This document shows, one piece after another, positions 1 through 61,010 of a DNA stretch of 64,000 nt. The stretch comes from Escherichia coli (lineage in GTDB: Bacteria > Pseudomonadota > Gammaproteobacteria > Enterobacterales > Enterobacteriaceae): assembly GCF_022846255.1 (NCBI RefSeq), contig NZ_AP025682.1; one strand, 5' to 3'. A program made the translations under genes and the position numbers. Each line of letters begins with the position of its first letter. Position 1 is the stretch's first letter. A model generated the notes under the pieces. That model did not search any database, was not told where the DNA came from, and saw nothing but the letters and a program-made list of their open reading frames with translations.

Positions 1-1
1 C

Positions 2-8586: not shown

Positions 8587-8733
8587 TCGCCGGCCTGCCA
8601 AAGCCGTCCCGACAGGTATGGAGACAATATGTTGAACAGAAAACTAAATATACGGCTACGTCATTCCCTGAACAGTCACTGCATACCTTCCGTCATTATC
8701 AATAACACCGTACGTTCATTTCAGAGGTCAGTC

Positions 8734-9411
8734 ATGAATACCAGAGCTCTTTTTCCCCTGCTGTTCACTGTGGCATCATTCTCCGCCTCCGCCGGCAACT
8801 GGGCTGTCAAAAACGGCTGGTGTCAGACCATGACGGAAGATGGTCAGGCGCTGGTAATGCTGAAAAATGGCACGATTGGTATTACCGGCCTGATGCAGGG
8901 ATGCCCGAATGGCGTACAGACGCTCCTGGGCAGCCGTATCAGTATTAACGGTAACCTGATCCCCACATCACAAATGTGTAATCAGCAGACGGGATTCAGG
9001 GCTGTTGAGGTGGAAATCGGACAGGCGCCGGAAATGGTCAAAAAAGCCGTTCACTCCATAGCAGAGCGTGATGTGTCCGTTTTACAGGCATTTGGTGTAC
9101 GAATGGAATTCACCCGCGGTGATATGCTGAAGGTCTGTCCGAAATTTGTCACATCACTTGCCGGTTTTTCCCCGAAACAGACGACCACTATTAATAAAGA
9201 TTCCGTCCTGCAGGCTGCCCGGCAGGCATACGCCCGGGAATATGACGAGGAAACAACAGAAACCGCTGATTTTGGCTCTTACGAAGTAAAAGGCAATAAG
9301 GTTGAGTTTGAAGTATTCAATCCTGAAGACCGTGCGTACGACAAAGTGACCGTCACGGTTGGTGCTGACGGTAATGCCACCGGCGCCAGCGTTGAATTTA
9401 TCGGAAAATAG
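8734..9411 (+). CDS. Secreted/periplasmic hypothetical protein with signal peptide
   Basis: Start placed at M36 of the track [24 protein letters not shown], a signal-peptide-like N-terminus. Confidence 0.6.
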
Positions 9412-9416
9412 CCGGT

Positions 9417-9650
9417 ATGTCGGACTGCCACCCTGTTTTATTGCCCGAAGGCCCTTTCTCACGCGAACAGGCGGTTGCCGTCACAACAGCTTACCGCAAT
9501 GTGCTTATTGAAGATGACCAGGGAACGCATTTCCGGCTGGTTATCCGCAATGCCGAAGGGCAGCTACGCTGGCGGTGCTGGAATTTTGAACCTGATGCCG
9601 GAAAACAGCTAAATTCGTATCTCGCCAGTGAGGGAATTCTCAGGCAATAA
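9417..9650 (+). CDS. Small conserved prophage protein (DUF905-like)
   Basis: 77-aa ORF tightly packed between neighbours on the same strand. Confidence 0.5.
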
Positions 9651-9739
9651 ACGTCTTCATTTCATCCATCAGGCCGCGTCTTCTCCGGGAGACGCGGCCT
9701 TTTCGTTTATACCGCTAATTCATTCATAAGGAGCAAAGT

Positions 9740-10558
9740 ATGCAATTAGCCAGTCGTTTTGGTCATGTAAATCAGATCCGTCGGGAGCGCCCACTGACAC
9801 GCGAAGAACTGATGTACCACGTCCCGAGTATTTTTGGAGAAGACCGGCACACCTCCCGCAGTGAACGGTATGCGTACATTCCCACCATCACCGTCCTGGA
9901 AAATCTGCAGCGGGAAGGCTTTCAGCCGTTCTTCGCCTGCCAGACCCGTGTGCGCGACCAGAGCCGCCGGGAATATACCAAACATATGCTGCGTCTGCGG
10001 CGGGCCGGACAGATAACCGGTCAGCATGTGCCTGAAATTATTCTGCTCAACTCCCATGACGGTTCATCCAGCTACCAGATGTTACCCGGATATTTTCGTG
10101 CCATCTGCACCAATGGCTTGGTCTGCGGTCAGTCGCTGGGAGAAGTCCGGGTGCCCCACCGGGGAAACGTGGTGGACAGGGTGATTGAAGGTGCTTACGA
10201 AGTGGTGGGCGTGTTTGACCGGATTGAGGAAAAGCGTGATGCCATGCAGTCGCTGGTCCTGCCGCCACCGGCACGCCAGGCGCTGGCACAGGCGGCGCTG
10301 ACTTACCGTTATGGTGATGAACATCAGCCCGTCACCACTACCGACATTCTGACGCCACGACGCCGGGAGGATTACGGTAAGGACCTGTGGAGTGCTTATC
10401 AGACCATCCAGGAAAATATGCTGAAAGGCGGGATTTCCGGTCGCAGTGCCAGAGGAAAACGTATCCATACCCGGGCCATTCGCAGCATCGATACCGACAT
10501 TAAGCTCAACCGGGCGTTGTGGGTGATGGCAGAAACGCTGCTGGAGAGCATGCGCTGA
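9740..10558 (+). CDS. DUF932 family protein (YfjQ/YafZ-like)
   Basis: 272-aa ORF; MQLASRFGHVNQIRRERPLTREELMYHVPSIFGEDRHTSRSERYAYIPTITVLENLQREGFQPFFACQT… is typical of YafZ/YfjQ. Confidence 0.8.
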   Translation: MQLASRFGHVNQIRRERPLTREELMYHVPSIFGEDRHTSRSERYAYIPTITVLENLQREGFQPFFACQTRVRDQSRREYTKHMLRLRRAGQITGQHVPEIILLNSHDGSSSYQMLPGYFRAICTNGLVCGQSLGEVRVPHRGNVVDRVIEGAYEVVGVFDRIEEKRDAMQSLVLPPPARQALAQAALTYRYGDEHQPVTTTDILTPRRREDYGKDLWSAYQTIQENMLKGGISGRSARGKRIHTRAIRSIDTDIKLNRALWVMAETLLESMR

Positions 10559-10649
10559 TGCTGTTTCCCTGAAAGTGCAGCCCTGACTCACGTCTGTACC
10601 AGTCCCCAGGCATTCTTCCATTCATTTACTTTTTATAAGGAATCATCTC

Positions 10650-11135
10650 ATGACAACCTTTTCGCATAGCTCCACCACACCTTCTGTTTCCGTAACTACT
10701 GCATCAGGGAATAACCAGTCTCAACTGGTTGCCACTCCCGTCCCTGATGAACAGCGCATCAGCTTCTGGCCGCAGCACTTTGGCCTCATTCCACAGTGGG
10801 TGACCCTGGAGCCCCGTGTCTTCGGCTGGATGGACCGTCTGTGTGAAGACTACTGCGGGGGTATCTGGAATCTGTACACCCTGAACAACGGTGGCGCATT
10901 TATAGCACCTGAACCGGATGAAGATGATGGAGAAACCTGGATACTGTTCAATGCCATGAACGGTAACCGCGCTGAAATGAGCCCGGAAGCTGCCGGCATT
11001 GCCGCCTGTCTGATGGCGTACAGCCATCATGCCTGTCGTACGGAGTGTTATGCCATGACGGTCCACTATTACCGGCTGCGGGATTACGCCCTGCAACATC
11101 CGGAATGCAGCGCCATTATGCGCATCATTGACTGA
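10650..11135 (+). CDS. Antirestriction protein (ArdB/KlcA-like; YfjX/YeeS-neighbour family)
   Basis: 161-aa ORF with the conserved …WPQHFGLIPQWVTLEPRVFGWMDRLCEDYCGGIWNLYTLNNGGAFIAPE… pattern. Confidence 0.8.
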   Translation: MTTFSHSSTTPSVSVTTASGNNQSQLVATPVPDEQRISFWPQHFGLIPQWVTLEPRVFGWMDRLCEDYCGGIWNLYTLNNGGAFIAPEPDEDDGETWILFNAMNGNRAEMSPEAAGIAACLMAYSHHACRTECYAMTVHYYRLRDYALQHPECSAIMRIID

Positions 11136-11149
11136 AAGGGGCCGGAACA

Positions 11150-11626
11150 ATGCAACAGATTTCCTTTCTGCCCGGAGAAATGACGCCCGGTGAGCGCAGC
11201 CTCATTCAGCGGGCCCTGAAAACCCTGGACCGCCATCTTCATGAACCCGGCGTGGCCTTCACCTCCACGCATGCGGCACGGGAATGGCTGATTCTGAACA
11301 TGGCGGGACTGGAGCGTGAAGAATTCCGGGTGCTGTATCTGAACAACCAGAATCAGCTGATTGCCGGTGAAACCCTCTTCACCGGCACCATCAACCGCAC
11401 GGAAGTCCATCCCCGGGAAGTGATTAAACGCGCCCTGTATCACAATGCCGCTGCCGTGGTGCTGGCACACAATCACCCGTCCGGTGAAGTCACACCCAGT
11501 AAGGCAGACCGGCTTATCACCGAACGTCTGGTACAGGCACTGGCCCTGGTGGATATCCGGGTGCCGGACCATCTGATAGTCGGTGGCAACCAGGTTTTCT
11601 CCTTTGCGGAACACGGTCTGCTTTAA
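11150..11626 (+). CDS. RadC-like JAB-domain protein (YeeS/YfjY/YkfG family)
   Basis: JAMM motif HNHPSGEVTPSKAD in a 158-aa ORF. Confidence 0.85.
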   Translation: MQQISFLPGEMTPGERSLIQRALKTLDRHLHEPGVAFTSTHAAREWLILNMAGLEREEFRVLYLNNQNQLIAGETLFTGTINRTEVHPREVIKRALYHNAAAVVLAHNHPSGEVTPSKADRLITERLVQALALVDIRVPDHLIVGGNQVFSFAEHGLL

Positions 11627-11688
11627 CCCGTCACAACTACATCACACTTGTTTTCACTTTTATCTTCTGTCTTCAGAGGTATCCCATC

Positions 11689-11910
11689 ATGAAAATTATC
11701 ACCCGTGGTGAAGCCATGCGTATTCACCAACAGCATCCTGCATCCCGTCTTTTTCCGTTCTGTACCGGTAAGTACCGCTGGCACGGCAGCGCTGAAGCGT
11801 ATACCGGTCGTGAAGTGCAGGATATTCCCGGCGTTCTTGCCGTGTTTGCTGAACGCCGTAAGGACAGTTTTGGCCCGTATGTCCGGCTGATGAGCGTCAC
11901 TCTGAACTGA
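11689..11910 (+). CDS. DUF987 protein (YeeT-like)
   Basis: 73-aa ORF MKIITRGEAMRIHQQHPASRLFPFCTGKYRWHGSAEAYTGREVQDIPGVLAVFAERRKDSFGPYVRLMSVTLN. Confidence 0.75.
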   Translation: MKIITRGEAMRIHQQHPASRLFPFCTGKYRWHGSAEAYTGREVQDIPGVLAVFAERRKDSFGPYVRLMSVTLN

Positions 11911-11989
11911 GTCAGGAAGGGCATTCAGAAGAGCAGAATTATCGCCACCACCGGACCATTCTTAACCAATTTTCTGTGAGGATTTTATT

Positions 11990-12358
11990 GTGTCAGACAC
12001 ATTCTCCGGGACAACGCATCCCGATGACAATCACGACCGCCCCTGGTGGGGGCTGCCCTGTACCGTGACACCTTGTTTTGGCGCCCGTCTGGTGCAGGAG
12101 GGTAACCGGTTGCATTACCTTGCCGACCGCGCCGATATCAGAGGCCGGTTCAGCGACGCGGATGCGTACCATCTGGACCAGGCCTTTCCGCTGCTGATGA
12201 AACAACTGGAGCTCATGCTCACCAGCGGTGAACTGAATCCCCGCCATCAGCATACCGTCACGCTGTATGCAAAAGGGCTGACCTGCGAAGCCGACACCCT
12301 CGGCAGTTGTGGCTACGTTTATATGGCTGTTTATCCGACGCCCGAAACGAAAAAGTAA
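11990..12358 (+). CDS. Type IV antitoxin of the CbeA/YeeU family
   Basis: 122-aa ORF immediately upstream of a CbtA-like gene; …WGLPCTVTPCFGARLVQEGNRLHYLADRA… matches the YeeU/CbeA pattern. Confidence 0.85.
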   Translation: MSDTFSGTTHPDDNHDRPWWGLPCTVTPCFGARLVQEGNRLHYLADRADIRGRFSDADAYHLDQAFPLLMKQLELMLTSGELNPRHQHTVTLYAKGLTCEADTLGSCGYVYMAVYPTPETKK

Positions 12359-12447
12359 ACCACCGGAATAATCGTCTGTTCCGGCCTGGTGCTTTCACCA
12401 CGCCACTTTTCCATTTTTCATCTCTGCATATCAGGAAAATCTTCAGT

Positions 12448-12825
12448 ATGAAAACATTACCTGTATTACCCGGGCAGGCGGCCAGTTCACGCCCGTCTCC
12501 GGTTGAAATCTGGCAGACACTGCTCACCCGACTGCTGGACCAGCATTACGGCCTTACGCTGAATGACACACCGTTCGCTGATGAACGTGTGATTGAGCAG
12601 CATATTGAGACAGGCATTTCACTGTGCGATGCGGTGAACTTTCTCGTTGAAAAATACACACTGGTACGTACCGACCAGCCAGGATTCAGCGCCTGTACCC
12701 GTTCTCAGTTAATAAACAGTATTGATATCCTCCGGGCCCGCCGGGCAACCGGCCTGATGGCCCGCGACAATTACAGAACGGTAAATAACATTACCCTGGG
12801 TAAACATCCGGGGGCGAAACAATGA
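12448..12825 (+). CDS. Type IV toxin of the CbtA/YeeV family
   Basis: Start at M48 of the track ORF; MKTLPVLPGQAASSRPSPVEIWQTLLTRLLDQHYGLTLNDTPFADERVIEQHIETGISLCDAVNFLVEKYTLVRTDQPGF…. Confidence 0.85.
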   Translation: MKTLPVLPGQAASSRPSPVEIWQTLLTRLLDQHYGLTLNDTPFADERVIEQHIETGISLCDAVNFLVEKYTLVRTDQPGFSACTRSQLINSIDILRARRATGLMARDNYRTVNNITLGKHPGAKQ

Positions 12826-13310
12826 AACTGGCCCTGACGCTGGAAGCCGACAGCATTAACGTGCAGGCACTGAACATGGGGCGCATTGTCGTTGACGTCG
12901 ATGGTGTTACTCTCGCTTAACTGATTAACGTGGTCTGCGATAACGGTTACTCCCTTCGTGTTGTTGATGAATCTGACCGGACATCAGCAGAGCGCACGCC
13001 ACCATCTGCGGCCCTTACCGGCATACGCTGCAGTACCGCGCATATCACGGCAAAGGACAACGCCTGGCTGTACTCGCTGTCACATCAGACGAATGGCACC
13101 GGCGAATCAGAATGGATTCATTTTACAGGTAGCGGATATCTGTTACGTACCGGTGCGTGGTCGTACCCGGTTCTGCGGCTTAAACGCCTGGGGCTGTCCA
13201 GAACGTTCCGCCGTCTGGTTGTCACACTCATCCGGCGTTATGGCGTCAGTCTCATTCATCTGGATGCCAGTGCCGGATGTCTGCCGGGTTTACCCACTTT
13301 CGACTGGTAA
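12822..13310 (+). pseudogene. YeeW-like prophage gene interrupted by an in-frame TAA
   Basis: ATG at 12822 overlaps the cbtA-like stop (ATGA). Frame 0 reads MKLALTLEADSINVQALNMGRIVVDVDGVTLA, then TAA at 12918-12920, then continues in the same frame (LINVVCDNGYSLRVVDESDR… to the stop at 13308-13310). Confidence 0.5.
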
Positions 13311-13326
13311 TCCGGAAATTCACAAC

Positions 13327-13524
13327 ATGAAATCATTAACCACGGAAACCGCACTGGATATTCTGATTGCGTGGCTGCAGGACAATATCGACTGCGAATC
13401 GGGAATTATCTTTGACAACGATGAGGATAGAACGGATTCGGCAGCACTGTTGCCCTGTATCGAACAGGCCAGGGAGGATATCCGTATCCTGCGCCAGTTG
13501 CAGCTTCTGCAACAGAACCGGTGA
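13327..13524 (+). CDS. Small hypothetical prophage protein (65 aa)
   Basis: ATG-initiated ORF MKSLTTETALDILIAWLQDNIDCESGIIFDNDEDRTDSAALLPCIEQAREDIRILRQLQLLQQNR; corresponds to the C-terminal part of the track ORF 12958..13524. Confidence 0.45.
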   Translation: MKSLTTETALDILIAWLQDNIDCESGIIFDNDEDRTDSAALLPCIEQAREDIRILRQLQLLQQNR

Positions 13525-13608
13525 GTCTTACTCACCAGACTTCATTCCACTGACGCCAGCCTGAACAGGGCTGGCGTTTTCATTTATCTGCAAAAAGGAA
13601 TATCGATT

Positions 13609-14451
13609 ATGTCTGAAATCACAGCCCCCCGTCCGGAAGTGGTCAACGGGCATACGGACGTTATCTGCTCAACCAGTATCCGCCACATTCTGGCTGTACG
13701 AAAGAGTACGCTGCTGCAAATCGACACACTTACCCGGCAACTGGCTGAAATCTCAGCAATGACAGAAAGCATTGGCGGTAAAACCGCACTGGACTGGGCG
13801 ATGAAACAGGATTTTCGCTGCGGCTGCTGGCTCATGGAGAAAACTGAAACGGCAATGAAAGCCATCACCCGAAACCTTGACCGTGAAATCTGGCGTGACC
13901 TGATGCAACGCTCCGGGATGCTGTCATTAATGGATGCGCAGACCCGTGATACATGGTACCGGTCACTGGAGTACAATAATTTTCCGGAAATCAGTGAAGC
14001 GAACATTCTGAGCACATTTGAACAACTGCACCAGAATAAGGATGAGGTGTTTGAGCGAGGGGTGATCAACGTCTTCAGGGGACTGAGCTGGGATTACAAA
14101 ACCAACTCACCCTGTAAATTTGGCAGTAAAATTATCGTCAACAACCTGGTGAGGTGGGACCGGTGGGGGTTTCATCTTATCACCGGGCAACAGACTGACC
14201 GACTCGTCGACCTGGAAAGAATGCTACATCTGTTCAGCGGCAAACCGATCCCCGACAACCGGGAAAACATCACTATTCGTCTGGATGGTCACATCCAGTC
14301 CGTTCAGGGTAAAGAGCGCTATGAAGACGAGATGTTCATCATTAAATACTTTAAGAAGGGATCTGCACACATCACTTTCAAAAGGCTGGAACTGATTGAC
14401 AGAATTAACGATATAATAGCCAGGTACTTTCCTTCTGTGCTCTCAGCCTGA
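13609..14451 (+). CDS. DUF4942-family protein (terminal gene of CP4-like elements)
   Basis: 280-aa ORF at the island end, just inside the tRNA-derived repeat. Confidence 0.7.
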   Translation: MSEITAPRPEVVNGHTDVICSTSIRHILAVRKSTLLQIDTLTRQLAEISAMTESIGGKTALDWAMKQDFRCGCWLMEKTETAMKAITRNLDREIWRDLMQRSGMLSLMDAQTRDTWYRSLEYNNFPEISEANILSTFEQLHQNKDEVFERGVINVFRGLSWDYKTNSPCKFGSKIIVNNLVRWDRWGFHLITGQQTDRLVDLERMLHLFSGKPIPDNRENITIRLDGHIQSVQGKERYEDEMFIIKYFKKGSAHITFKRLELIDRINDIIARYFPSVLSA

Positions 14452-14561
14452 TCCCGAGTGTGATTCCCTTTCGATATCAAAAGGGACTGCGGGTATAATT
14501 GAGGGTACATTTTTAATCAAACCAAACAAATTGTATTAATATCAATATGATAAAAGAAATT

Positions 14562-25062: not shown

Positions 25063-25293
25063 TTATTTATGACGGTATTTCAGCGCGCCACTCGGGCACG
25101 TATCAATCACTTTAACCACAGTGGCAACGTCGACTTCATCCGGCATGATTCACGGCTTTCGTTTGAGATTAAATAACTTGCCGTTGCCACGTACGCAATT
25201 GCCAGAATGCTGACATATCGCAGTATTGAAATAGACATCGATCTTTTCGCCGGTATAACAGCGATAACCCCCGTCCAGTAGCGCCCGATCCAT
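25063..25293 (-). pseudogene. yjdI: yjdI (DUF1271 Cys-rich protein) interrupted by an in-frame TGA at codon 48
   Basis: Minus-strand frame from the ATG at 25293 reads MDRALLDGGYRCYTGEKIDVYFNTAICQHSGNCVRGNGKLFNLKRKP, then TGA at 25152..25150, then [28 protein letters not shown] to the TAA at 25063-25065. 47 + 1 + 28 = 76 codons; the track has no ORF of 60 aa or more in this frame. Confidence 0.6.
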
Positions 25294-31578: not shown

Positions 31579-32229
31579 ATGACCCGCACACTCAAGCCGT
31601 TAATTCTTAACACCGGCGCACTGGCGCTAACGTTAATCCTGATTTATACCGGCATTTCGGCCCATGACAAACTCACCTGGCTGATGGAAGTGACACCGGT
31701 GATTATTGTCGTGCCGCTACTGCTTGCCACCGCTAAACGTTATCCGTTAACGCCGCTGCTTTATACGCTCATTTTCTTTCACGCCATCATCCTGATGGTC
31801 GGCGGGCAATACACCTACGCGAAAGTCCCCGTTGGTTTTGAGGTGCAGGAATGGCTGGGGTTGAGCCGTAATCCGTATGACAAACTGGGGCATTTTTTCC
31901 AGGGGCTGGTGCCTGCACTGGTGGCACGAGAGATCCTCGTGCGCGGGATGTACGTTCGCGGGCGTAAAATGGTGGCGTTTCTGGTCTGTTGTGTCGCGCT
32001 GGCGATAAGCGCGATGTATGAGTTAATCGAGTGGTGGGCAGCGCTGGCAATGGGCCAGGGCGCAGATGATTTTCTCGGTACTCAAGGCGACCCGTGGGAT
32101 ACGCAATCCGATATGTTCTGCGCACTACTGGGCGCATTAACGACGGTGATATTCCTCGCCCGCTTTCATTGCCGCCAGCTACGGCGCTTTGGCTTAATCA
32201 CCAGAGCGCCGGAAGCGATTACCCCTTAA
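31579..32229 (+). CDS. yjdF: Inner membrane protein YjdF
   Basis: 216-aa multi-TM ORF; its stop overlaps the melA stop on the opposite strand (TTAA at 32226-32229). Confidence 0.85.
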   Translation: MTRTLKPLILNTGALALTLILIYTGISAHDKLTWLMEVTPVIIVVPLLLATAKRYPLTPLLYTLIFFHAIILMVGGQYTYAKVPVGFEVQEWLGLSRNPYDKLGHFFQGLVPALVAREILVRGMYVRGRKMVAFLVCCVALAISAMYELIEWWAALAMGQGADDFLGTQGDPWDTQSDMFCALLGALTTVIFLARFHCRQLRRFGLITRAPEAITP

Positions 32230-49120: not shown

Positions 49121-49199
49121 TAAGCCGGATAAGGCGCTCGCGCCGCATCCGGCAACGATGCCGACAGCCTGATGCGACGCTGACCGCGTCTTATCAGGC
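49121..49199. repeat. REP (repetitive extragenic palindrome) elements
   Basis: gccggataaggcgctcgcgccgcatccggca and an inverted partner; canonical E. coli REP motifs. Confidence 0.7.
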
Positions 49200-49264
49200 T
49201 TCCCTCTCATCTGTATAAATTTCGAACTACACTTAACTGGCTTCTCTTAACTGAGGTCACCATC

Positions 49265-49708
49265 ATGCCGTTAAGTCCCTACCTCTCTTTTGCCGGTAAC
49301 TGTGCCGACGCAATTGCTTATTATCAACGTACGTTGGGCGCTGAACTGCTCTATAAAATCAGCTTCGGCGAAATGCCAAAATCAGCGCAGGACAGCGCCG
49401 AGAACTGCCCTTCCGGAATGCAATTTCCCGATACCGCCATCGCCCACGCCAATGTGCGCATTGCCGGAAGCGATATCATGATGAGCGATGCTATACCGTC
49501 AGGAAAAGCCAGCTACTCCGGCTTTACGCTGGTGCTCGATTCGCAACAGGTCGAAGAAGGAAAACGCTGGTTTGACAACCTTGCCGCTAACGGAAAAATC
49601 GAAATGGCCTGGCAGGAAACTTTCTGGGCGCATGGCTTCGGCAAAGTCACCGATAAATTTGGCGTACCGTGGATGATTAATGTCGTCAAACAACAACCAA
49701 CGCACTAA
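49265..49708 (+). CDS. phnB: PhnB (glyoxalase/bleomycin-resistance fold)
   Basis: 147-aa ORF between phnA and phnC. Confidence 0.9.
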   Translation: MPLSPYLSFAGNCADAIAYYQRTLGAELLYKISFGEMPKSAQDSAENCPSGMQFPDTAIAHANVRIAGSDIMMSDAIPSGKASYSGFTLVLDSQQVEEGKRWFDNLAANGKIEMAWQETFWAHGFGKVTDKFGVPWMINVVKQQPTH

Positions 49709-49840
49709 CCCGCCGGGAGGGCCGCCCTCCCGCACTGTCATCGAATTCCCGTTAACTCTTCATCTGTTAGTCACTTTTAATTAACCAAATCGTCACAATA
49801 ATCCGCCACGATGGAGCCACTTTTTTAGGGAGGCTGCATC

Positions 49841-50629
49841 ATGCAAACGATTATCCGTGTCGAGAAGCTCGCCAAAACCTTCAATCAGCATCAGGCGCTG
49901 CACGCGGTTGATCTGAACATTCATCACGGTGAAATGGTGGCTCTGCTTGGGCCGTCGGGTTCCGGCAAATCCACCCTTTTACGTCACTTAAGCGGTTTGA
50001 TTACCGGCGATAAATCTGCCGGTAGCCATATCGAGCTGCTGGGCCGCACAGTCCAGCGCGAAGGCCGCCTGGCCCGCGATATCCGCAAAAGCCGCGCCAA
50101 CACCGGCTACATCTTCCAACAATTCAACCTGGTGAATCGCCTGAGCGTACTGGAGAACGTGCTGATTGGCGCGCTCGGCAGCACGCCATTCTGGCGCACC
50201 TGTTTTAGCTACTTCACCCGCGAGCAGAAACAGCGCGCGTTACAGGCGCTGACCCGCGTTGGCATGGTGCACTTTGCCCATCAGCGCGTTTCCACACTCT
50301 CCGGCGGCCAGCAACAGCGTGTGGCGATTGCCCGCGCGCTGATGCAGCAGGCGAAGGTGATTCTGGCCGATGAACCCATCGCCTCGCTGGACCCGGAATC
50401 AGCGCGCATCGTGATGGACACCCTGCGCGACATCAACCAGAACGACGGCATTACCGTGGTCGTCACGCTGCATCAGGTGGATTACGCCCTGCGCTACTGC
50501 GAACGCATCGTCGCCCTGCGCCAGGGGCACGTCTTCTACGACGGCAGCAGCCAACAGTTTGATAACGAACGTTTTGACCATCTCTACCGCAGCATTAACC
50601 GCGTCGAAGAGAACGCGAAAGCTGCCTGA
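49841..50629 (+). CDS. phnC: Phosphonate ABC transporter ATPase
   Basis: 262 aa; Walker [10 protein letters not shown] and ABC signature LSGGQQQR. Confidence 0.95.
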
Positions 50630-50653
50630 CATCCCCATCATTGAGGAAAACGA

Positions 50654-51670
50654 ATGAACGCTAAGATAATTGCCTCGCTGGCCTTCACCAGCATGTTCAG
50701 CCTCAGCACCCTGTTAAGCCCGGCGCACGCCGAAGAGCAGGAAAAGGCGCTGAATTTCGGCATTATTTCAACGGAATCACAGCAAAACCTGAAACCGCAA
50801 TGGACGCCGTTCTTACAGGATATGGAAAAGAAGCTGGGCGTGAAAGTGAACGCCTTCTTTGCCCCGGACTACGCGGGCATTATCCAGGGAATGCGTTTTA
50901 ATAAAGTGGATATCGCCTGGTACGGCAACCTGTCGGCAATGGAAGCGGTGGATCGCGCCAACGGTCAGGTCTTCGCCCAGACGGTCGCGGCAGATGGATC
51001 GCCGGGTTACTGGAGCGTGTTGATCGTCAACAAAGATAGTCCGATCAACAACCTGAACGATCTGCTGGCGAAGCGGAAAGATCTCACCTTCGGCAATGGC
51101 GATCCTAACTCTACCTCCGGCTTCCTCGTCCCCGGTTACTACGTCTTCGCTAAAAACAATATCTCCGCCAGCGACTTTAAGCGCACCGTCAACGCCGGGC
51201 ATGAAACCAACGCCCTCGCCGTCGCTAACAAGCAAGTGGATGTCGCCACCAACAACACCGAAAACCTCGACAAGCTGAAAACCTCCGCGCCGGAGAAGCT
51301 GAAAGAACTGAAGGTGATCTGGAAATCACCGCTGATCCCTGGCGATCCGATCGTCTGGCGCAAAAATCTTTCCGAAACCACTAAAGACAAGATCTACGAC
51401 TTCTTTATGAATTACGGCAAAACGCCGGAAGAGAAAGCGGTGCTGGAACGCCTGGGCTGGGCCCCGTTCCGCGCCTCCAGCGACCTGCAACTGGTGCCGA
51501 TTCGCCAGCTCGCACTGTTTAAAGAGATGCAAAGCGTGAAGGACAACAAAGGGCTGAACGAACAGGACAAGCTGGCAAAAACCACTGCCATTCAGGTGCA
51601 ACTGGATGATTTGGACCGCCTGAACAACGCGTTAAGCGCAATGAGTTCGGTGAGTAAAGCGGTGCAGTAA
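50654..51670 (+). CDS. phnD: Phosphonate ABC transporter periplasmic binding protein
   Basis: 338 aa with a signal peptide. Confidence 0.95.
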
Positions 51671-51671
51671 A

Positions 51672-51762
51672 TCGTAGGTCGGATAAGACGCCCGGCGTCG
51701 CATCCGACAATGTGCAGACGTTGATGCCGGATGCGGTGCAAGCACCTTATCCGGCCTACAGA
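51672..51762. repeat. REP elements between phnD and phnE
   Basis: aggtcggataagacgcccggcgtcgcatccgaca … gatgccggatgcggtgcaagcaccttatccggcctaca. Confidence 0.7.
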
Positions 51763-51774
51763 CCGGAGCCAAAC

Positions 51775-52554
51775 ATGCAAACCATCACCATCGCCCCACC
51801 CAAGCGCAGCTGGTTCTCGCTTCTGAGCTGGGCCGTTGTTATCGCCGTGCTGGTCGTCTCGTGGCAGGGCGCGGAAATGGCCCCGCTTACGCTGATTAAA
51901 GATGGCGGCAACATGGCGACGTTCGCCGCCGACTTCTTCCCGCCCGATTTCAGCCAGTGGCAGGATTACCTCACCGAAATGGCCGTCACGCTGCAAATCG
52001 CCGTCTGGGGCACCGCGCTGGCGGTGGTTCTCTCCATCCCCTTCGGCCTGATGAGCGCTGAAAACCTGGTACCGTGGTGGGTCTACCAACCTGTACGCCG
52101 CCTGATGGACGCCTGCCGCGCCATTAACGAAATGGTCTTCGCCATGCTGTTCGTGGTCGCCGTCGGCCTCGGCCCGTTCGCTGGCGTGCTGGCGCTGTTT
52201 ATCCACACCACCGGCGTACTTTCCAAACTGCTTTCCGAAGCGGTAGAAGCGATTGAACCCGGCCCGGTGGAGGGCATTCGCGCCACTGGTGCCAACAAGC
52301 TGGAAGAGATCCTCTACGGCGTACTACCGCAGGTCATGCCGCTGCTGATTTCCTACTCTCTCTATCGCTTCGAATCCAACGTCCGCTCGGCGACCGTCGT
52401 CGGTATGGTTGGCGCGGGCGGAATTGGCGTCACGCTGTGGGAAGCGATTCGCGGTTTCCAGTTCCAGCAAACCTGCGCCCTGATGGTGCTCATCATCGTC
52501 ACGGTCAGCCTGCTGGATTTCCTCTCTCAACGGTTGCGTAAGCACTTTATCTGA
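51775..52554 (+). CDS. phnE: Phosphonate ABC transporter permease (intact)
   Basis: 259 aa from M22 of the track ORF ([13 protein letters not shown]…); uninterrupted reading frame. Confidence 0.9.
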
Positions 52555-52574
52555 TAAGCGAGGCATTGATATCT

Positions 52575-53300
52575 ATGCACTTGTCTACACATCCGACCAG
52601 CTACCCAACACGCTATCAGGAGATAGCCGCAAAACTTGAGCAGGAGCTTCGTCAACACTACCGCTGCGGCGACTATCTTCCCGCCGAGCAGCAACTGGCG
52701 GCGCGCTTTGAGGTGAACCGCCACACCCTGCGCCGCGCCATCGACCAACTGGTGGAAAAAGGCTGGGTACAGCGCCGTCAGGGCGTCGGCGTACTGGTGC
52801 TGATGCGCCCGTTCGATTACCCGCTCAATGCCCAGGCGCGTTTTAGCCAGAACCTGCTGGACCAGGGCAGCCATCCCACCAGCGAAAAATTGCTATCGGT
52901 GCTGCGCCCCGCCTCCGGTCACGTCGCTGACGCGCTGGGGATAACCGAGGGGGAGAACGTTATCCACCTGCGCACCCTGCGTCGGGTCAACGGCGTCGCG
53001 CTCTGTTTAATCGACCACTACTTTGCGGACCTCACCCTCTGGCCGACGCTTCAATGCTTTGACAGCGGTTCGCTACACGATTTTCTGCGCGAGCAAACGG
53101 GGATTACGCTACGACGCAGTCAGACGCGGATCAGCGCCCGCCGCGCCCAGGCCAAAGAGTGCCAGCGTCTTGAAATTCCGAATATGTCGCCGCTGCTGTG
53201 CGTGCGCACCCTTAACCACCGTGACGGTGAAAGCAGCCCGGCGGAATACTCCGTCAGCCTGACACGCGCCGACATGATTGAATTCACTATGGAGCACTGA
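52575..53300 (+). CDS. phnF: GntR-family repressor of the phn operon
   Basis: 241 aa from M4 of the track ORF; HTH plus UTRA domain. Confidence 0.9.
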   Translation: MHLSTHPTSYPTRYQEIAAKLEQELRQHYRCGDYLPAEQQLAARFEVNRHTLRRAIDQLVEKGWVQRRQGVGVLVLMRPFDYPLNAQARFSQNLLDQGSHPTSEKLLSVLRPASGHVADALGITEGENVIHLRTLRRVNGVALCLIDHYFADLTLWPTLQCFDSGSLHDFLREQTGITLRRSQTRISARRAQAKECQRLEIPNMSPLLCVRTLNHRDGESSPAEYSVSLTRADMIEFTMEH

Positions 53301-53753
53301 ATGCACGCAGATACCGCGACCCGCCAGCACTGGATGTCCGTGCTGGCGCACAGCCAACCGGCTGAACTGGCAGCCCGCCTGAACGCGCTGAACATCACCG
53401 CCGACTATGAAGTAATCCGCGCCGCTGAAACCGGCCTGGTGCAGATTCAGGCGCGGATGGGTGGCACCGGCGAACGCTTTTTTGCTGGCGACGCCACGCT
53501 CACCCGCGCCGCCGTACGCCTGACTGACGGCACGCTCGGCTACAGCTGGGTGCTGGGGCGCGACAAACAGCACGCCGAACGCTGCGCGCTGATCGACGCG
53601 CTGATGCAGCAAACCCGCCATTTTCAAAACTTATCAGAAACTCTTATTGCCCCGCTGAACGCTGACCGTATGGCACGCATTGCCGCACGCCAGGCCGAAG
53701 TAAACGCCAGCCGGGTCGACTTCTTTACGATGGTTCGCGGAGATAACGCATGA
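53301..53753 (+). CDS. phnG: C-P lyase core complex subunit PhnG
   Basis: 150 aa; position and translationally coupled arrangement within phnGHIJ. Confidence 0.95.
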
Positions 53754-54334
53754 CCCTGGAAACCGCTTTTATGCTTCCCGTGCAGGATGCCCAGCACAGT
53801 TTTCGTCGCCTGTTAAAGGCCATGAGCGAGCCGGGCGTGATTGTCGCCCTGCATCAGCTCAAACGCGGCTGGCAGCCGCTGAATATCGCCACCACCAGCG
53901 TGCTGCTGACGCTGGCCGATAACGACACGCCGGTGTGGCTTTCTGCGCCATTAAGTAACGATATCGTCAGCCAGAGCCTGCGTTTTCATACCAACGCGCC
54001 GCTGGTCAATCAGCCGGAACTGGCGACCTTCGCGGTAACGGATGAGGCGATTTCCAGCGAACAGCTTAACGCCCTTTCCAGCGGCACCGCTGTTGCGCCA
54101 GAAGCGGGCGCGACGCTGATTTTACAGGTCGTCAGCCTGAGCGGCGGGCGCATGCTGCGCCTTACTGGCGCGGGTATTGCCGAAGAACGAATGATCGCCC
54201 CGCAGCTGCCGGAGTGCATTCTGCACGAACTTACCGAGCGCCCGCACCCGTTCCCGCTCGGCATCGACCTGATCCTGACCTGCGGCGAGCGCCTGCTGGC
54301 TATCCCGCGAACCACTCATGTGGAGGTGTGCTGA
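53750..54334 (+). CDS. phnH: C-P lyase core complex subunit PhnH
   Basis: 194 aa; start overlaps the phnG stop. Confidence 0.95.
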
Positions 54335-55398
54335 TGTACGTTGCCGTGAAAGGGGGCGAGAAGGCGATCGACGCCGCCCACGCCCTGCAAGAGAGCCGAC
54401 GCCGGGGCAATACCGATTTGCCTGAACTGAGCGTCGCCCAGATTGAACAGCAGCTTAATCTTGCAGTAGATCGCGTGATGACCGAAGGCGGCATTGCCGA
54501 CCGCGAACTGGCGGCGCTGGCGCTGAAACAGGCCAGCGGCGATAACGTCGAAGCGATTTTCCTGCTACGCGCCTACCGCACCACGCTGGCGAAGCTTGCG
54601 GTGAGCGAGCCGCTCGACACCACGGAGATGCGTCTCGAACGGCGTATTTCAGCGGTTTATAAAGATATTCCCGGCGGCCAGCTGCTTGGCCCAACCTACG
54701 ACTACACCCATCGCCTGCTCAATTTCACCCTGCTGGCAAACGGCGAAGCGCCGACGCTGACCACCGCCGACAGCGAACAACAGCCGTCGCCGCACGTTTT
54801 CAGCCTGCTGGCGCGTCAGGGGCTGGCGAAGTTTGAAGAAGATAGCGGCGCACAGCCGGACGACATCACCCGCACGCCGCCGGTTTACCCCTGCTCACGC
54901 TCCTCCCGCCTGCAACAATTAATGCGCGGCGACGAAGGCTATTTGCTGGCGCTGGCCTACTCCACCCAGCGTGGTTACGGACGCAATCATCCGTTCGCAG
55001 GCGAAATCCGCAGCGGCTATATCGACGTGTCGATTGTGCCGGAAGAGCTGGGATTTGCGGTGAACGTCGGCGAACTGCTGATGACCGAATGTGAAATGGT
55101 CAACGGTTTTATCGACCCGCCGGATGAGCCGCCGCACTTCACGCGCGGCTACGGGCTGGTGTTCGGCATGAGCGAGCGCAAAGCGATGGCGATGGCGCTG
55201 GTTGACCGCGCTCTACAAGCCCCGGAGTACGGCGAGCACGCGACAGGCCCGGCGCAGGATGAAGAGTTCGTGCTGGCGCATGCCGACAACGTCGAAGCCG
55301 CAGGCTTTGTCTCGCACCTTAAACTCCCGCACTACGTCGATTTCCAGGCCGAACTGGAGCTACTCAAACGTCTGCAACAGGAGCAGAACCATGGCTAA
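54334..55398 (+). CDS. phnI: C-P lyase core complex subunit PhnI
   Basis: 354 aa from M41 of the track ORF ([13 protein letters not shown]…); ATG overlaps the phnH TGA. Confidence 0.95.
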   Translation: MYVAVKGGEKAIDAAHALQESRRRGNTDLPELSVAQIEQQLNLAVDRVMTEGGIADRELAALALKQASGDNVEAIFLLRAYRTTLAKLAVSEPLDTTEMRLERRISAVYKDIPGGQLLGPTYDYTHRLLNFTLLANGEAPTLTTADSEQQPSPHVFSLLARQGLAKFEEDSGAQPDDITRTPPVYPCSRSSRLQQLMRGDEGYLLALAYSTQRGYGRNHPFAGEIRSGYIDVSIVPEELGFAVNVGELLMTECEMVNGFIDPPDEPPHFTRGYGLVFGMSERKAMAMALVDRALQAPEYGEHATGPAQDEEFVLAHADNVEAAGFVSHLKLPHYVDFQAELELLKRLQQEQNHG

Positions 55399-56236
55399 TC
55401 TGAGCGGCTACAACTTTGCCTACCTCGACGAGCAGACCAAACGCATGATCCGCCGCGCCATCTTAAAAGCGGTGGCGATCCCCGGTTATCAGGTGCCGTT
55501 TGGCGGGCGCGAGATGCCGATGCCGTACGGCTGGGGAACTGGTGGTATCCAGCTTACCGCCAGCGTGATTGGCGAAAGCGATGTGCTGAAGGTGATTGAC
55601 CAGGGCGCGGACGACACCACCAACGCGGTGTCGATCCGTAACTTCTTTAAGCGCGTGACCGGGGTAAACACTACCGAACGCACGGACGATGCGACGCTTA
55701 TCCAGACGCGCCATCGCATCCCCGAAACGCCGCTCACCGAAGATCAGATCATTATTTTCCAGGTGCCGATCCCCGAACCGCTGCGCTTTATCGAGCCGCG
55801 CGAAACGGAAACCCGCACCATGCACGCGCTGGAGGAGTACGGCGTGATGCAGGTGAAACTGTATGAAGATATCGCCCGCTTCGGTCATATCGCCACCACC
55901 TATGCCTATCCGGTGAAGGTGAACGGGCGCTACGTGATGGACCCGTCGCCGATCCCGAAATTCGATAACCCGAAAATGGACATGATGCCCGCCCTGCAGC
56001 TGTTCGGCGCAGGGCGCGAGAAGCGCATCTATGCGGTGCCGCCGTTTACCCGCGTGGAAAGTCTCGATTTCGACGATCACCCGTTCACCGTTCAGCAGTG
56101 GGATGAGCCATGCGCCATCTGCGGATCGACCCACAGCTATCTCGACGAAGTGGTGCTGGATGACGCCGGAAACCGCATGTTTGTCTGCTCCGATACCGAT
56201 TATTGCCGCCAACAGAGCGAGGCAAAAAACCAATGA
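55391..56236 (+). CDS. phnJ: C-P lyase catalytic subunit PhnJ (radical SAM-like, 4 Cys)
   Basis: 281 aa from M64 of the track ORF (MANLSGYNFAYLDEQTKRMIRR…); C-terminal Cys cluster CAICGSTHSYLDEVV…CSDTDYC. Confidence 0.95.
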   Translation: MANLSGYNFAYLDEQTKRMIRRAILKAVAIPGYQVPFGGREMPMPYGWGTGGIQLTASVIGESDVLKVIDQGADDTTNAVSIRNFFKRVTGVNTTERTDDATLIQTRHRIPETPLTEDQIIIFQVPIPEPLRFIEPRETETRTMHALEEYGVMQVKLYEDIARFGHIATTYAYPVKVNGRYVMDPSPIPKFDNPKMDMMPALQLFGAGREKRIYAVPPFTRVESLDFDDHPFTVQQWDEPCAICGSTHSYLDEVVLDDAGNRMFVCSDTDYCRQQSEAKNQ

Positions 56237-56991
56237 ATCAACCGTTACTTTCGGTCAATAACCTGACCCACCTTTACGCGCCGGGCAAAGGCTTTAGCGA
56301 TGTCTCTTTTGATTTATGGCCGGGGGAAGTGCTGGGCATCGTCGGGGAATCCGGCTCCGGGAAGACCACGCTGCTGAAGTCGATCTCCGCGCGCCTGACG
56401 CCGCAGCAGGGGGAAATTCGCTATGAAAACCGTTCCCTCTATGGCATGAGCGAGGCCGACCGCCGTCGCCTGCTGCGCACCGAATGGGGCGTGGTGCATC
56501 AGCATCCACTCGACGGCCTGCGCCGCCAGGTGTCGGCAGGCGGCAATATCGGCGAGCGGCTGATGGCGACCGGGGCGCGTCATTACGGCGATATTCGTGC
56601 CACCGCGCAGAAGTGGCTGGAAGAGGTGGAAATTCCCGCCAACCGGATCGACGACCTGCCGACCACCTTTTCCGGCGGTATGCAGCAGCGTTTGCAGATT
56701 GCCCGCAACCTGGTGACGCATCCGAAGCTGGTATTTATGGACGAGCCAACCGGCGGGCTGGATGTATCTGTGCAGGCGCGCCTGCTCGACCTGCTGCGCG
56801 GCCTGGTGGTGGAGCTGAACCTGGCGGTGGTGATTGTCACCCACGATTTAGGCGTCGCCCGCCTGCTGGCGGACCGTTTGCTGGTGATGAAGCAGGGGCA
56901 AGTAGTGGAGAGTGGGTTAACCGACCGCGTGCTCGACGACCCGCATCACCCGTATACCCAGCTGCTGGTGTCATCTGTTTTGCAGAATTGA
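56233..56991 (+). CDS. phnK: C-P lyase-associated ABC-type ATPase PhnK
   Basis: 252 aa from M11 of the track ORF; Walker [10 protein letters not shown]. Confidence 0.95.
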
Positions 56992-56992
56992 G

Positions 56993-57082
<90 letters not shown>

Positions 57083-57101
57083 CCGAACCACGAGGCGAAA
57101 A

Positions 57102-57782
57102 ATGATTAACGTACAAAACGTCAGTAAAACCTTCATCCTGCATCAGCAAAACGGCGTGCGCCTGCCCGTATTACAACGTGCCTCGCTCACCGTCAACGCA
57201 GGCGAATGCGTGGTGCTTCACGGCCACTCCGGCAGCGGAAAATCAACCCTGCTGCGCTCGCTGTACGCCAACTATCTGCCCGACGAAGGGCAAATCCAGA
57301 TCAAACACGGTGAGGAATGGGTAGACCTGGTCACCGCGCCAGCCCGCAAAGTGGTGGAGATCCGCAAAACCACCATCGGCTGGGTGAGCCAGTTTCTGCG
57401 CGTCATCCCGCGTATTTCGGCACTGGAAGTGGTGATGCAGCCTCTGCTCGATACCGGCGTACCGCGTGAAGCCTGCGCCGCTAAAGCCGCCCGATTACTG
57501 ACGCGCCTGAACGTGCCTGAACGCCTGTGGCACCTGGCACCATCGACCTTCTCCGGCGGCGAACAGCAGCGCGTCAACATCGCCCGTGGCTTTATCGTCG
57601 ACTATCCGATTCTGCTGCTGGATGAACCCACCGCCTCGCTGGACGCTAAAAACAGCGCCGCGGTGGTGGAATTAATTCGCGAAGCCAAAGCCCGTGGCGC
57701 GGCCATCGTCGGTATCTTCCATGACGAAGCCGTACGCAATGACGTCGCCGACCGCCTGCACCCAATGGGAGTCTCTTCATGA
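57102..57782 (+). CDS. phnL: C-P lyase-associated ABC-type ATPase PhnL
   Basis: 226 aa ([51 protein letters not shown]…); in frame within the longer track ORF 56484..57782, whose N-terminal extension is spurious. Confidence 0.95.
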
Positions 57783-58915
57783 TTATCAATAACGTCAAAC
57801 TGGTGCTGGAAAACGAAGTGGTGCACGGTTCACTGGAAGTACAGGATGGCAAAATTCGCGCCTTTGCCGAAAGCCAGAGCCGCCAGCCGGAAGCGATGGA
57901 CGGCGAAGGTGGCTGGCTGCTGCCGGGGCTGATTGAGCTGCATACCGATAATCTGGATAAATTCTTCACCCCGCGTCCAAAAGTGGACTGGCCCGCCCAC
58001 TCGGCAATGAGTAGCCACGACGCGCTGATGGTGGCGAGCGGCATCACCACCGTGCTGGACGCGGTGGCGATTGGCGACGTGCGCGACGGCGGCGATCGGC
58101 TGGAGAATCTGGAGAAGATGATCAACGCCATCGAAGAGACGCAGAAACGCGGCGTCAACCGCGCCGAGCACCGCCTGCACCTGCGCTGCGAACTGCCGCA
58201 CCACACCACGTTGCCGCTGTTTGAAAAACTGGTGCAGCGCGAACCGGTGACGCTGGTATCGCTGATGGACCACTCGCCAGGCCAGCGCCAGTTCGCCAAT
58301 CGCGAGAAGTATCGCGAATATTATCAGGGCAAATATTCCCTCACCGATGCGCAGATGCAGCAGTACGAAGAGGAACAGCTGGCGCTTGCCGCACGCTGGT
58401 CACAGCCTAATCGCGAAACTATCGCCGCAATGTGCCGCGCGCGACACATTGCCCTCGCCAGCCACGATGACGCCACGCACGCCCACGTTGCCGAATCCCA
58501 CCAGCTTGGCAGCGTGATCGCCGAATTTCCCACCACGTTCGAAGCGGCAGAAGCCTCGCGCAAGCATGGCATGAACGTGCTGATGGGCGCGCCGAATATC
58601 GTGCGCGGCGGTTCGCACTCCGGCAACGTGGCGGCCAGTGAACTGGCGCAGCTTGGCCTGCTGGATATCCTCTCTTCCGATTACTACCCCGCCAGCCTGC
58701 TCGATGCGGCATTTCGCGTCGCCGATGACGAGATCAACCGCTTTACGCTGCCGCAGGCGGTGAAGCTGGTGACTAAAAATCCGGCGCAGGCGCTTAATCT
58801 TCAGGATCGCGGGGTGATTGGCGAGGGCAAACGCGCCGACCTGGTGCTGGCGCATCGCAAGGGCAACCACATTCATATCGACCACGTCTGGCGTCAGGGT
58901 AAAAGGGTGTTCTGA
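57779..58915 (+). CDS. phnM: PhnM, amidohydrolase-fold RPnTP diphosphatase
   Basis: 378-aa amidohydrolase-like ORF. Confidence 0.95.
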
Positions 58916-59472
58916 TGACGGGAAAACTGATTTGGTTAATGGGGGCCTCTGGCTCCGGAAAAGACAGTCTGTTGACGGAACTCCGCCAGCGGGAACAAAC
59001 TCAGCTACTGGTAGCGCATCGCTACATCACGCGTGATGCCAGCGCCGGAAGTGAAAATCATATCGCCTTAAGCGAGCGGGAGTTTTTTACCCGCGCGGGG
59101 CAAAATCTGTTGGCCCTGAGCTGGCATGCTAATGGTTTGTATTACGGTGTCGGCATTGAGATCGACCTCTGGCTGCACGCCGGATTCGACGTCGTGGTTA
59201 ACGGCTCACGCGCCCACCTGCCGCAGGCGCGGGCGCGTTATCAATCGGCGCTGCTGCCCATCTGTTTACAGGTTTCGCCGGAGATCCTGCGCCAGCGCCT
59301 GGAAAACCGTGGCCGCGAAAACGCCAGTGAAATTAATGCCCGGCTGGCGCGCGCCGCCCGCTATACTCCTCAGGATTGCCATACACTCAATAATGACGGC
59401 AGCCTGCGCCAGTCGGTCGACACGCTGCTGACGCTGATTCATCAGAAGGAGAAACACCATGCCTGCTTGTGA
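58915..59472 (+). CDS. phnN: Ribose 1,5-bisphosphokinase PhnN
   Basis: 185 aa; P-loop [10 protein letters not shown]. Confidence 0.95.
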
Positions 59473-59893
59473 ACTTCGCCCGGCAACGCAGTACGACACC
59501 GACGCGGTTTACGCGCTGATTTGTGAGCTAAAACAAGCGGAGTTTGACCACCAGGCGTTTCGCGTGGGCTTTAACGCCAACCTGCGCGACCCGAACATGC
59601 GCTACCATCTGGCGCTGTTGGATGGCGAGGTTGTCGGCATGATCGGCCTGCATTTGCAGTTTCATCTGCATCATGTCAACTGGATCGGCGAAATTCAGGA
59701 ACTGGTGGTGATGCCGCAGGCGCGCGGTCTGAACGTCGGCAGTAAATTACTGGCATGGGCAGAAGAAGAAGCCCGCCAGGCTGGGGCCGAAATGATCGAG
59801 CTTTCCACCAACGTGAAGCGCCACGACGCGCACCGTTTTTACCTGCGTGAAGGCTACGAGCAGAGCCACTTCCGCTTCACCAAGGAGCTGTAA
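59459..59893 (+). CDS. phnO: Aminoalkylphosphonate N-acetyltransferase PhnO (GNAT)
   Basis: 144-aa GNAT fold. Confidence 0.95.
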
Positions 59894-59894
59894 T

Positions 59895-60653
59895 ATGAGC
59901 CTGACCCTCACGCTCACCGGCACCGGCTGCGCACAGGGCGTTCCGGCATGGGGCTGCGAGTGCGTAGCCTGCGCCAGAGCGCGGCGCTCACCGCAGTATC
60001 GCCGCCAGCCGTGCAGCGGCGTAGTGAAGTTTAACGAGGCGATCACCCTGATCGACGCCGGGCTGCACGATCTCGCCGATCGCTGGTCGCCCGGATCGTT
60101 CCAGCAGTTTTTACTGACGCACTACCATATGGATCACGTCCAGGGGCTGTTTCCGCTGCGCTGGGGCGTGGGCAATCAGATCCCGGTCTACGGTCCACCG
60201 GATGAGCAGGGCTGCGACGATCTGTTTAAACATCCGGGCCTGCTTGATTTCAGCCACACGGTGGAGCCGTTTGTGGTGTTTGATTTGCAGGGGTTGCAGG
60301 TCACGCCGCTGCCGCTTAACCATTCGAAACTCACTTTCGGCTATTTACTGGAAACGGCGCACAGCCGGGTGGCGTGGCTATCTGACACCGCAGGCCTGCC
60401 GGAAAAAACGCTGAAATTTTTACGCAATAATCAGCCGCAGGTAATGGTGATTGATTGCAGCCACCCGCCGCGCGAGGATGCACCGCGTAATCACTGTGAT
60501 TTAAATACCGTGCTGGCGCTGAATGAGGTTATCCGCTCGCCGCGCGTGATTCTGACCCATATCAGCCACCGGTTTGATGCGTGGCTGATGGAAAACGCGC
60601 TACCATCGGGGTTTGAGGCGGGGTTTGATGGGATGGAGATTGAGGTGGCGTGA
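59895..60653 (+). CDS. phnP: Phosphodiesterase PhnP (metallo-beta-lactamase fold)
   Basis: 252 aa from M17 of the track ORF; HxHxDH motif ([10 protein letters not shown]). Confidence 0.95.
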
Positions 60654-60680
60654 GGGAAAATACCCGCGCCGGCCCCTATA

Positions 60681-61010
60681 TCAACGCCCATACTCATCTT
60701 CCATTCTCCGCTCTTCATCTTCCAGTTGCCGACGCTCCTGATCAAGCTGGCGCTGGCGATCGTCCAGCTGCCTGCGGCGATCTTCAAACTGGCGGCGGCG
60801 GTCATCATATTGTCTGCGCCGATCGTCGCTCACTTCACGCTGCCAGCCGTCGTCGCGCGAATCTTCATAGTCTCGCCCACGGTCAGGGTTATAAGCGTCG
60901 TTAATCGCCTGCTGAATATTGCCAATGGTGTCGTCGATAATATCGGCCTGGGCCGGAACGGTGGACAGCGTGAGCAGGGTGAATAAAAGAAATAGCGGAA
61001 AGCGTTTCAT
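60681..61010 (-). CDS. yjdP: Secreted low-complexity protein YjdP
   Basis: 109 aa; signal peptide followed by an Arg/Asp/Gln-rich repetitive region. Confidence 0.85.
   Translation of the reverse strand: MKRFPLFLLFTLLTLSTVPAQADIIDDTIGNIQQAINDAYNPDRGRDYEDSRDDGWQREVSDDRRRQYDDRRRQFEDRRRQLDDRQRQLDQERRQLEDEERRMEDEYGR

Follow-up and report, generated by a model that had tools for sequence, protein, structure and literature searches.

An in-frame, two-unit phnE and a complete, predicted functional phn operon in an Escherichia coli chromosome that is not of the K-12 type

The phn operon, its junctions and its upstream region

We analysed a stretch of 64,000 nucleotides of an Escherichia coli chromosome (contig NZ_AP025682.1, assembly GCF_022846255.1), referred to here as the window, in which all 14 genes of the phn operon are present, co-oriented and in the canonical order, and without stops or frameshifts (Table 1). 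The products of all 14 pass the curated family cut-offs along almost the entire model; for PhnI and PhnJ, which have no NCBIfam model, the Pfam families served instead. When the other 13 K-12 proteins (PhnC, PhnD, and PhnF through PhnP) were compared with the window using tblastn, each gave a full-length, ungapped match with 95.6–99.6% amino acid identity, and there are no internal stops in any of the corresponding genes. With the 259 codons of phnE, these data bear out the preliminary description of this DNA, in which phnC to phnP were all said to be of the expected length.

Table 1. Positions of the phn genes and associated features in the window. Scores are in bits, with the family cut-off following where there is one.
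Feature	Position	Strand	Evidence
Stretch absent from K-12	1–14561		K-12 homology starts within tRNA-Phe (pheU), in its 3' part, AG100 coordinate 4359047
Single BIME/naRNA4 unit, yjdM–yjdN spacer	49123–49200	+	Rfam RF02564, 85.5
phnC upstream regulatory region	49722–49840	+	119 bp before the ATG, 100% identical to K-12 and B
phnC, ABC transporter ATPase, 262 aa	49841–50629	+	98.5% aa identity to K-12; NF007438, 606 vs 365
phnD, periplasmic phosphonate-binding protein, 338 aa	50654–51670	+	TIGR03431, 376.5 vs 261.1
REP/BIME element, phnD–phnE spacer	51677–51756	-	Rfam RF02564 (naRNA4), 65.3 vs gathering score 59.5
phnE, ABC transporter permease, 259 aa, uninterrupted	51775–52554	+	TIGR01097, 311.5 vs 216.7
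Two tandem 8-bp units GCTGGCGT GCTGGCGC, in-frame ('ON') state of the slippage site	52180–52195	+	Alignment with K-12
phnF, GntR-family repressor, 241 aa	52575–53300	+	NF007486, 515.6 vs 363
phnG, 150 aa	53301–53753	+	TIGR03293, 179.1 vs 89
phnH, 194 aa	53750–54334	+	TIGR03292, 201.2 vs 91.5
phnI, 354 aa, lineage-private D130N	54334–55398	+	Pfam PF05861, 513.9
phnJ, radical-SAM C-P lyase, 281 aa	55391–56236	+	Pfam PF06007, 502.1
phnK, ABC-type ATPase of the lyase complex, 252 aa	56233–56991	+	TIGR02323, 410.5 vs 302.85
phnL, ABC-type ATPase, 226 aa	57102–57782	+	TIGR02324, 371.6 vs 256.3
phnM, triphosphate diphosphatase, 378 aa	57779–58915	+	TIGR02318, 553.6 vs 390.55
phnN, ribose 1,5-bisphosphokinase, 185 aa	58915–59472	+	NF007485, 355.3 vs 153
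phnO, aminoalkylphosphonate N-acetyltransferase, 144 aa	59459–59893	+	NF007530, 310.6 vs 142
phnP, cyclic phosphodiesterase, 252 aa	59895–60653	+	TIGR03307, 429.4 vs 272.25

The gene spacing is that of K-12 save for one base, the phnD–phnE spacer being 104 bp in the window and 105 bp in K-12. Nine of the 13 junctions overlap or abut (F/G 0, G/H -4, H/I -1, I/J -8, J/K -4, L/M -4, M/N -1, N/O -14, and O/P +1), and the other four are spaced by 24 bp (C/D), 104 bp (D/E), 20 bp (E/F) and 110 bp (K/L). Translational coupling, which had been proposed for the operon as a whole, is thus in keeping with the arrangement at nine junctions but not at the four with gaps of 20–110 bp.

In E. coli, PhnCDE import phosphonates (and phosphate) and PhnF is the repressor of the operon. 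Cleavage of the C-P bond, which proceeds by way of ribosyl-phosphonate intermediates, is the task of PhnGHIJKLM together with PhnN and PhnP; aminoalkylphosphonates are acetylated by PhnO, and phosphate starvation induces transcription from the phnC promoter. The region immediately 5' of the phnC ATG is unchanged both from K-12 and from the E. coli B derivative C43(DE3), and contains Pho-box-like repeats with an 11-bp phasing (CTGTTAGTCAC, TTTTAATTAAC and CAAATCGTCAC, at approximately 49764–49796), which we take to be the Pho box reported by Makino 1991. A strict search of the window for the Pho-box consensus (CTGTCATAWAWCTGTCAY, with three or fewer mismatches) gave a single, unrelated match at position 9135 and none upstream of phnC, and the integrity of the promoter is therefore judged from its identity with K-12 and B. 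From this same identity, PhoB control of the phnC promoter would be expected. A generic scan of the operon for promoters and terminators was uninformative, with counts at or below the shuffled expectation, and a 'terminator-like' match at 52179–52194 was rejected as merely the 8-bp repeat within phnE.

phnE is in frame and has two copies of an 8-bp unit

The phnE gene extends from an ATG at 51775 to a TGA ending at 52554, with 259 codons and zero internal stops, so that the single uninterrupted frame described previously is confirmed at exactly those coordinates. A GGAG motif is positioned 6 nt upstream of the ATG. A longer, mechanically defined open reading frame begins with a GTG at 51712, and we discarded this start, which is used by none of the reference record annotations. 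The match of PhnE to the equivalog model TIGR01097 spans model positions 8–251 of 252, Pfam BPD_transp_1 corresponds to residues 88–258, and with a score far above the TIGR01097 cut-off phnE is a genuine gene, a chance reading frame being excluded. The genes for the binding protein (phnD) and the ATPase (phnC) are located directly upstream. PhnE is by these measures a member of the phosphonate ABC permease family, and is predicted to act in phosphonate transport. It is a single residue apart from the PhnE of the E. coli B derivative (L23I, near the N-terminus), and the identical protein is encoded on at least 1000 contigs.

For comparison with K-12 we used substr. AG100, in which phnE is 788 bp and is designated in RefSeq as a "frameshifted" pseudogene. 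The alignment of the window with AG100 phnE contains one gap only, of 8 bp, at ORF positions 406–413. In K-12 there are three 8-bp units in the order GCTGGCGT-GCTGGCGT-GCTGGCGC, whereas the window has two, GCTGGCGT-GCTGGCGC, at 52180–52187 and 52188–52195, and in both the repeat is preceded by TTC and followed by TG. Translation of the K-12 gene is in register up to residue 141, beyond which the frame is lost and a stop follows at codon 190, at the cost of the C-terminal 118 residues of PhnE and, among them, a loop of the permease domain. The 19-residue stretch encoded 3' of the repeat is presumably the EAA-type loop, the cytoplasmic segment through which the permeases of ABC importers contact their ATPase. 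The long form of phnE is present in the K-12 derivatives AG100, J53 and JM109, and inactivation of the K-12 gene by an 8-bp duplication, as the preliminary description had it, is evident in AG100. The arrangement that characterizes the cryptic K-12 phnE (three units, with two copies of GCTGGCGT and one of GCTGGCGC, and a frameshift) is absent from the window, which has two units; the alignment thus also answers the concern that a duplication had been overlooked, as the additional unit is in K-12.

The deletion that reverts K-12 phnE has been described as the removal of GCTGGCGT at ORF positions 407–414 (PMC6469041), and the extra K-12 unit matches it in both sequence and position. Gain and loss of phnE units by replication slippage is ascribed to Iqbal et al. 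2004 in the account given in PMC6469041, and is also described in PMC4759930; in K-12, selection with phosphonate or phosphate limitation yields revertants that have lost the insertion by slippage (PMC6469041, PMC4759930). Because the tandem units are prone to slippage, the in-frame state is a property of the clone that was sequenced, whose descendants could include frameshifted variants.

The phn genes are divergent, mosaic and under purifying selection

Synonymous divergence of the phn genes is unusually high. The per-gene dS is 0.08–0.29 relative to K-12 and reaches 0.36 relative to strain A20, and for 27 flanking genes it is 0.03–0.12, with a median of about 0.06. Comparison of blocks across 49700–60700 shows that the closest relative changes along the operon, with A20 at approximately 99–99.8% identity in 50900–52900, 377323_2f at 100% in 53700–56500, and F11 at 100% in 56500–58100; no close relative was found in this comparison for the segment at about 58100–59300. 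The phn operon is thus a recombination mosaic. The dN/dS ratio is approximately 0.01–0.19 per phn gene (Nei-Gojobori, against five reference strains, for comparisons with measurable dS), and higher ratios arise only between near-identical alleles. As dN/dS is low despite the large synonymous divergence, all 14 phn genes are under purifying selection.

The exact sequence of each of the 14 Phn proteins is found in public E. coli genomes, six of them (PhnD, PhnI, PhnM, PhnN, PhnO and PhnP) being rare alleles present on 2–6 contigs each. The two contigs found to carry the rare PhnD allele are only 97.8–97.9% identical to the window. The accessions of the rare alleles are consecutive (BDH35292–BDH35304), a numbering that implies annotation of phnE by the depositor as an ordinary coding sequence. 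The lineage-private substitutions are A315V in PhnD, D130N in PhnI, S319I in PhnM, T113I and A143E in PhnO, and G12C in PhnP. PhnJ matches its counterpart in the E. coli B derivative at every residue, differs from K-12 at V103L only, and is retained as a whole, including the Fe4S4 cysteines and Gly32 (residue roles from PMC9947105).

These substitutions provide the strongest alternative to a working operon, in which the genes are intact in sequence and function is impaired by lineage-private missense changes, with PhnI D130N as the main candidate and those in PhnM, PhnO, PhnP and PhnD as further ones. PhnI differs from K-12 at positions 26, 98, 130 and 264 only, and D130, which is at the end of the conserved motif LGPT(Y/F)DYT(H/Q)RLLDF, shows no variation among 101 enterobacterial homologues with identities of 85% or more. 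The alleles are rare, and natural E. coli with broken phn genes exist, as illustrated by A20 with its frameshifted phnI. However, the set of homologues with at least 85% identity overstated the conservation of D130, and in a corrected alignment of 117 diverse representatives at 50% identity the column contains D in 90, N in 6, E in 4 and other residues in 17, so that Asn, as in the window, is the commonest alternative. When each change is reverted in silico, the broad-family profile scores count against the window allele by about 1 bit at most (N130D in PhnI +1.1 bits, and I319S in PhnM +0.9 bits), and for two of the changes it is the window residue that is favored (C12G in PhnP -0.8, and I113T in PhnO -3.0, the latter with Pfam GNAT). 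PhnD A315V is outside the family model TIGR03431, which ends at residue 291. Moreover, dN/dS is low throughout, and the known catalytic and metal-binding residues are all untouched: the differences from K-12 miss PhnI His219, His328 and His333, as well as the catalytic and contact residues of PhnK, to which a cryo-EM analysis of the lyase draws attention (PMC9947105). We therefore regard impairment by missense changes as unlikely, although D130N, in a rare lineage, could reduce PhnI activity even though Asn is found in distant homologues.

Copy number of the phnE repeat among E. coli genomes

To survey the repeat, a 131-bp K-12 segment across it was used as a query against 5,426 complete E. 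coli genomes. The three-unit allele was identified in 1,001 records with at least 99% identity over the full query length, corresponding to about 1,000 of 5,392 genomes (~18%). The majority allele has two units (~4,370 of 5,392, or ~81%) and accounts, as 123-bp matches, for essentially all of the remaining records; most isolates have been reported to carry a functional phnE (PMC6469041). A four-unit allele is present in at most 20 records, an upper bound taken from a one-unit query because the identity bands obtained with a four-unit query are confounded by partial local alignments, and 12 of these were verified as 139-bp spans. Its carriers include VR50 (NZ_CP011134.1), which is among those verified, together with poultry and wastewater isolates.

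The three-unit allele is not a K-12 laboratory artefact, since at its frequency of ~18% it occurs in wild isolates. Among 11 evenly sampled three-unit records, 7–8 are isolates from humans, poultry, frog or soil, and strain 300709 (NZ_CP025903.1), from human stool in Mozambique, has a three-unit phnE that is annotated as frameshifted. Only eight records fall within the 95–99% identity band, where three-unit alleles with diverged flanks would be expected. Nearly all frameshifted phnE alleles thus share a single flank haplotype, and the frameshifted state looks to be inherited rather than frequently switched.

The same distribution bears on a second alternative, that the strain is really frameshifted and that the two units in the window reflect a mistake in assembly or sequencing, or a phase variant in the minority. 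Although tandem repeats slip, and genomes with three and with four units exist, a repeat of 16–24 bp is trivially spanned by any read, and two units is the state of the great majority of genomes. Furthermore, three-unit alleles are nearly all embedded in K-12-identical flanks (1001 versus 8), whereas phnE of the window is a divergent allele. An in-frame phnE in the strain itself is much the better account, and we consider an error or minority variant to be very improbable.

The chromosomal background is not that of K-12

The preliminary description took the intact phnE as evidence that the chromosome is not of the MG1655 type. The state of phnE is weak evidence of ancestry, as the 8-bp site slips and reverts readily in K-12 (PMC6469041, PMC4759930), and because K-12 revertants are so easily obtained an in-frame phnE alone cannot exclude a K-12 background. 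The assignment itself stands on other differences, namely a divergence of about 2% in the flanks and 4.7% in phn, a probable island at pheU, and the loss of melB. A K-12 derivative restored to phnE+ by loss of one 8-bp unit, of the kind that arises easily under phosphate limitation (PMC6469041, PMC4759930), is already refuted by the measured divergence and has a negligible probability: apart from the repeat, some 35 positions of phnE differ between the window and K-12 (94.5% identity), identity to K-12 is 95.3% across the operon and ~98% in the flanks, nothing in K-12 corresponds to the first 14.5 kb, and melB is missing.

Among complete E. coli genomes, B2-type strains give the best match to window positions 20000–44000, at 98.9% identity, and the best match to the phn operon reaches only 97.8%. 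The source lineage is absent from the complete E. coli genome collection.

At the left end of the window, the stretch without K-12 homology looks like the distal end of a genomic island inserted at pheU and bounded by a partial tRNA repeat; no complete tRNA was found in the window using ARAGORN. melB is wholly absent, with melA ending at 32226 and the yjdF homology ending at about 32205, and the 1.67 kb that K-12 has here is replaced by ~23 bp, at 32202–32226. The strain should therefore lack the melibiose permease while retaining melA and melR.

Predicted function and relationship to known phn operons

We consider it highly probable that the window derives from a wild-type (non-K-12) E. coli chromosome with the common two-unit, in-frame phnE and a complete phnCDEFGHIJKLMNOP operon that is predicted to be functional. 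The earlier proposal that the 14-gene C-P lyase operon appears functional is upheld at the level of sequence, as a prediction to which a small residual doubt attaches. Reading frames, gene content and gene order are intact, and the promoter is unchanged. The phn products would be expected to be expressed and to carry out transport and catalysis, and the strain would be predicted to grow on phosphonates with no need for a reverting mutation.

The operon is most simply described as a standard functional-type E. coli phn operon, a predicted equivalent of phn(EcoB). It shares with phn(EcoB), and with most natural E. coli, the 14 genes, their order and junctions, and the two 8-bp units in phnE, and with phn(EcoB) in particular the identical PhnJ, a PhnE one residue apart, and an identical region upstream of phnC. 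It differs from these in having 4–7% nucleotide divergence per gene, almost all of it synonymous, in its rare PhnD, PhnI, PhnM, PhnN, PhnO and PhnP alleles, and in its mosaic segments. The phn(EcoK) operon is alike in locus, in gene architecture and in its neighbors (yjdM and yjdN upstream, and yjdP and rpiB downstream), but is cryptic, with three units and a frameshift, whereas in the window the repeat has two units and PhnE is full length. There is also a likeness to phase-variable loci with short repeats, in that the number of units in a tandem repeat within the coding region sets the reading frame. However, in contrast to long homopolymer or tetranucleotide tracts, phnE has only 2–4 units of 8 bp, and switching should be much slower.

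Published work already covers the gene, its repeat and the slippage, and also how rare the K-12 state is, and the locus is an already known and ordinary one. Annotators should record the strain as phosphonate-utilising (predicted) and should not label phnE a pseudogene by analogy with K-12. The K-12 reference is atypical at phnE, yet its frameshift allele is common to ~18% of complete genomes; the status of phnE is accordingly no marker of laboratory ancestry and, being subject to slippage, no stable lineage marker either.

Two by-products of the analysis are mildly unexpected, the occurrence of the frameshifted allele at ~18%, wild isolates included, and the mosaic and divergent nature of the phn operon. 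Taken together, the mosaic, with blocks of 1–3 kb that match different, unrelated strains at 100%, dS values of 0.2–0.36 between alleles, compared with about 0.06 for neighboring genes, and a frameshifted phnE that appears fixed in about one-fifth of genomes might reflect long-term distinct haplotypes or enterobacterial introgression, with lineage-specific switching-off of uptake. We offer this as a conjecture that is rather doubtful at present; if true, the maintenance or introgression of phn haplotypes would amount to more than neutral variation.

Other differences in and around the operon

Several other features of the window and of the comparison strains were recorded. In the A20 operon (L002:11560-12634), in addition to the frameshifted phnI, phnP is longer. 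Many E. coli encode a 329-aa PhnI that has an in-frame deletion of ~25 residues (proteins P0208–P0224).

The yjdI gene (25063–25293, on the minus strand) contains an in-frame TGA at codon 48, which is a Trp codon in K-12, and the 76-aa 4Fe-4S protein is truncated.

The intergenic spacers at both ends of the operon also vary. Upstream, the yjdM–yjdN spacer is 159 bp in the window and 657 bp in K-12, a difference of ~500 bp. In K-12 this spacer contains six tandem units of ~100 bp, and in strain A20 it contains IS1397. We take the K-12 array to be REP325, the source of the nucleoid-associated naRNA4. Downstream, the phnP–yjdP spacer (60654–60680) is 27 bp in the window, 27–34 bp in F11 and 377323_2f, and 146 bp in K-12 and B. 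The K-12 and B spacers have an additional element of ~119 bp, which we presume to be probably a REP element.
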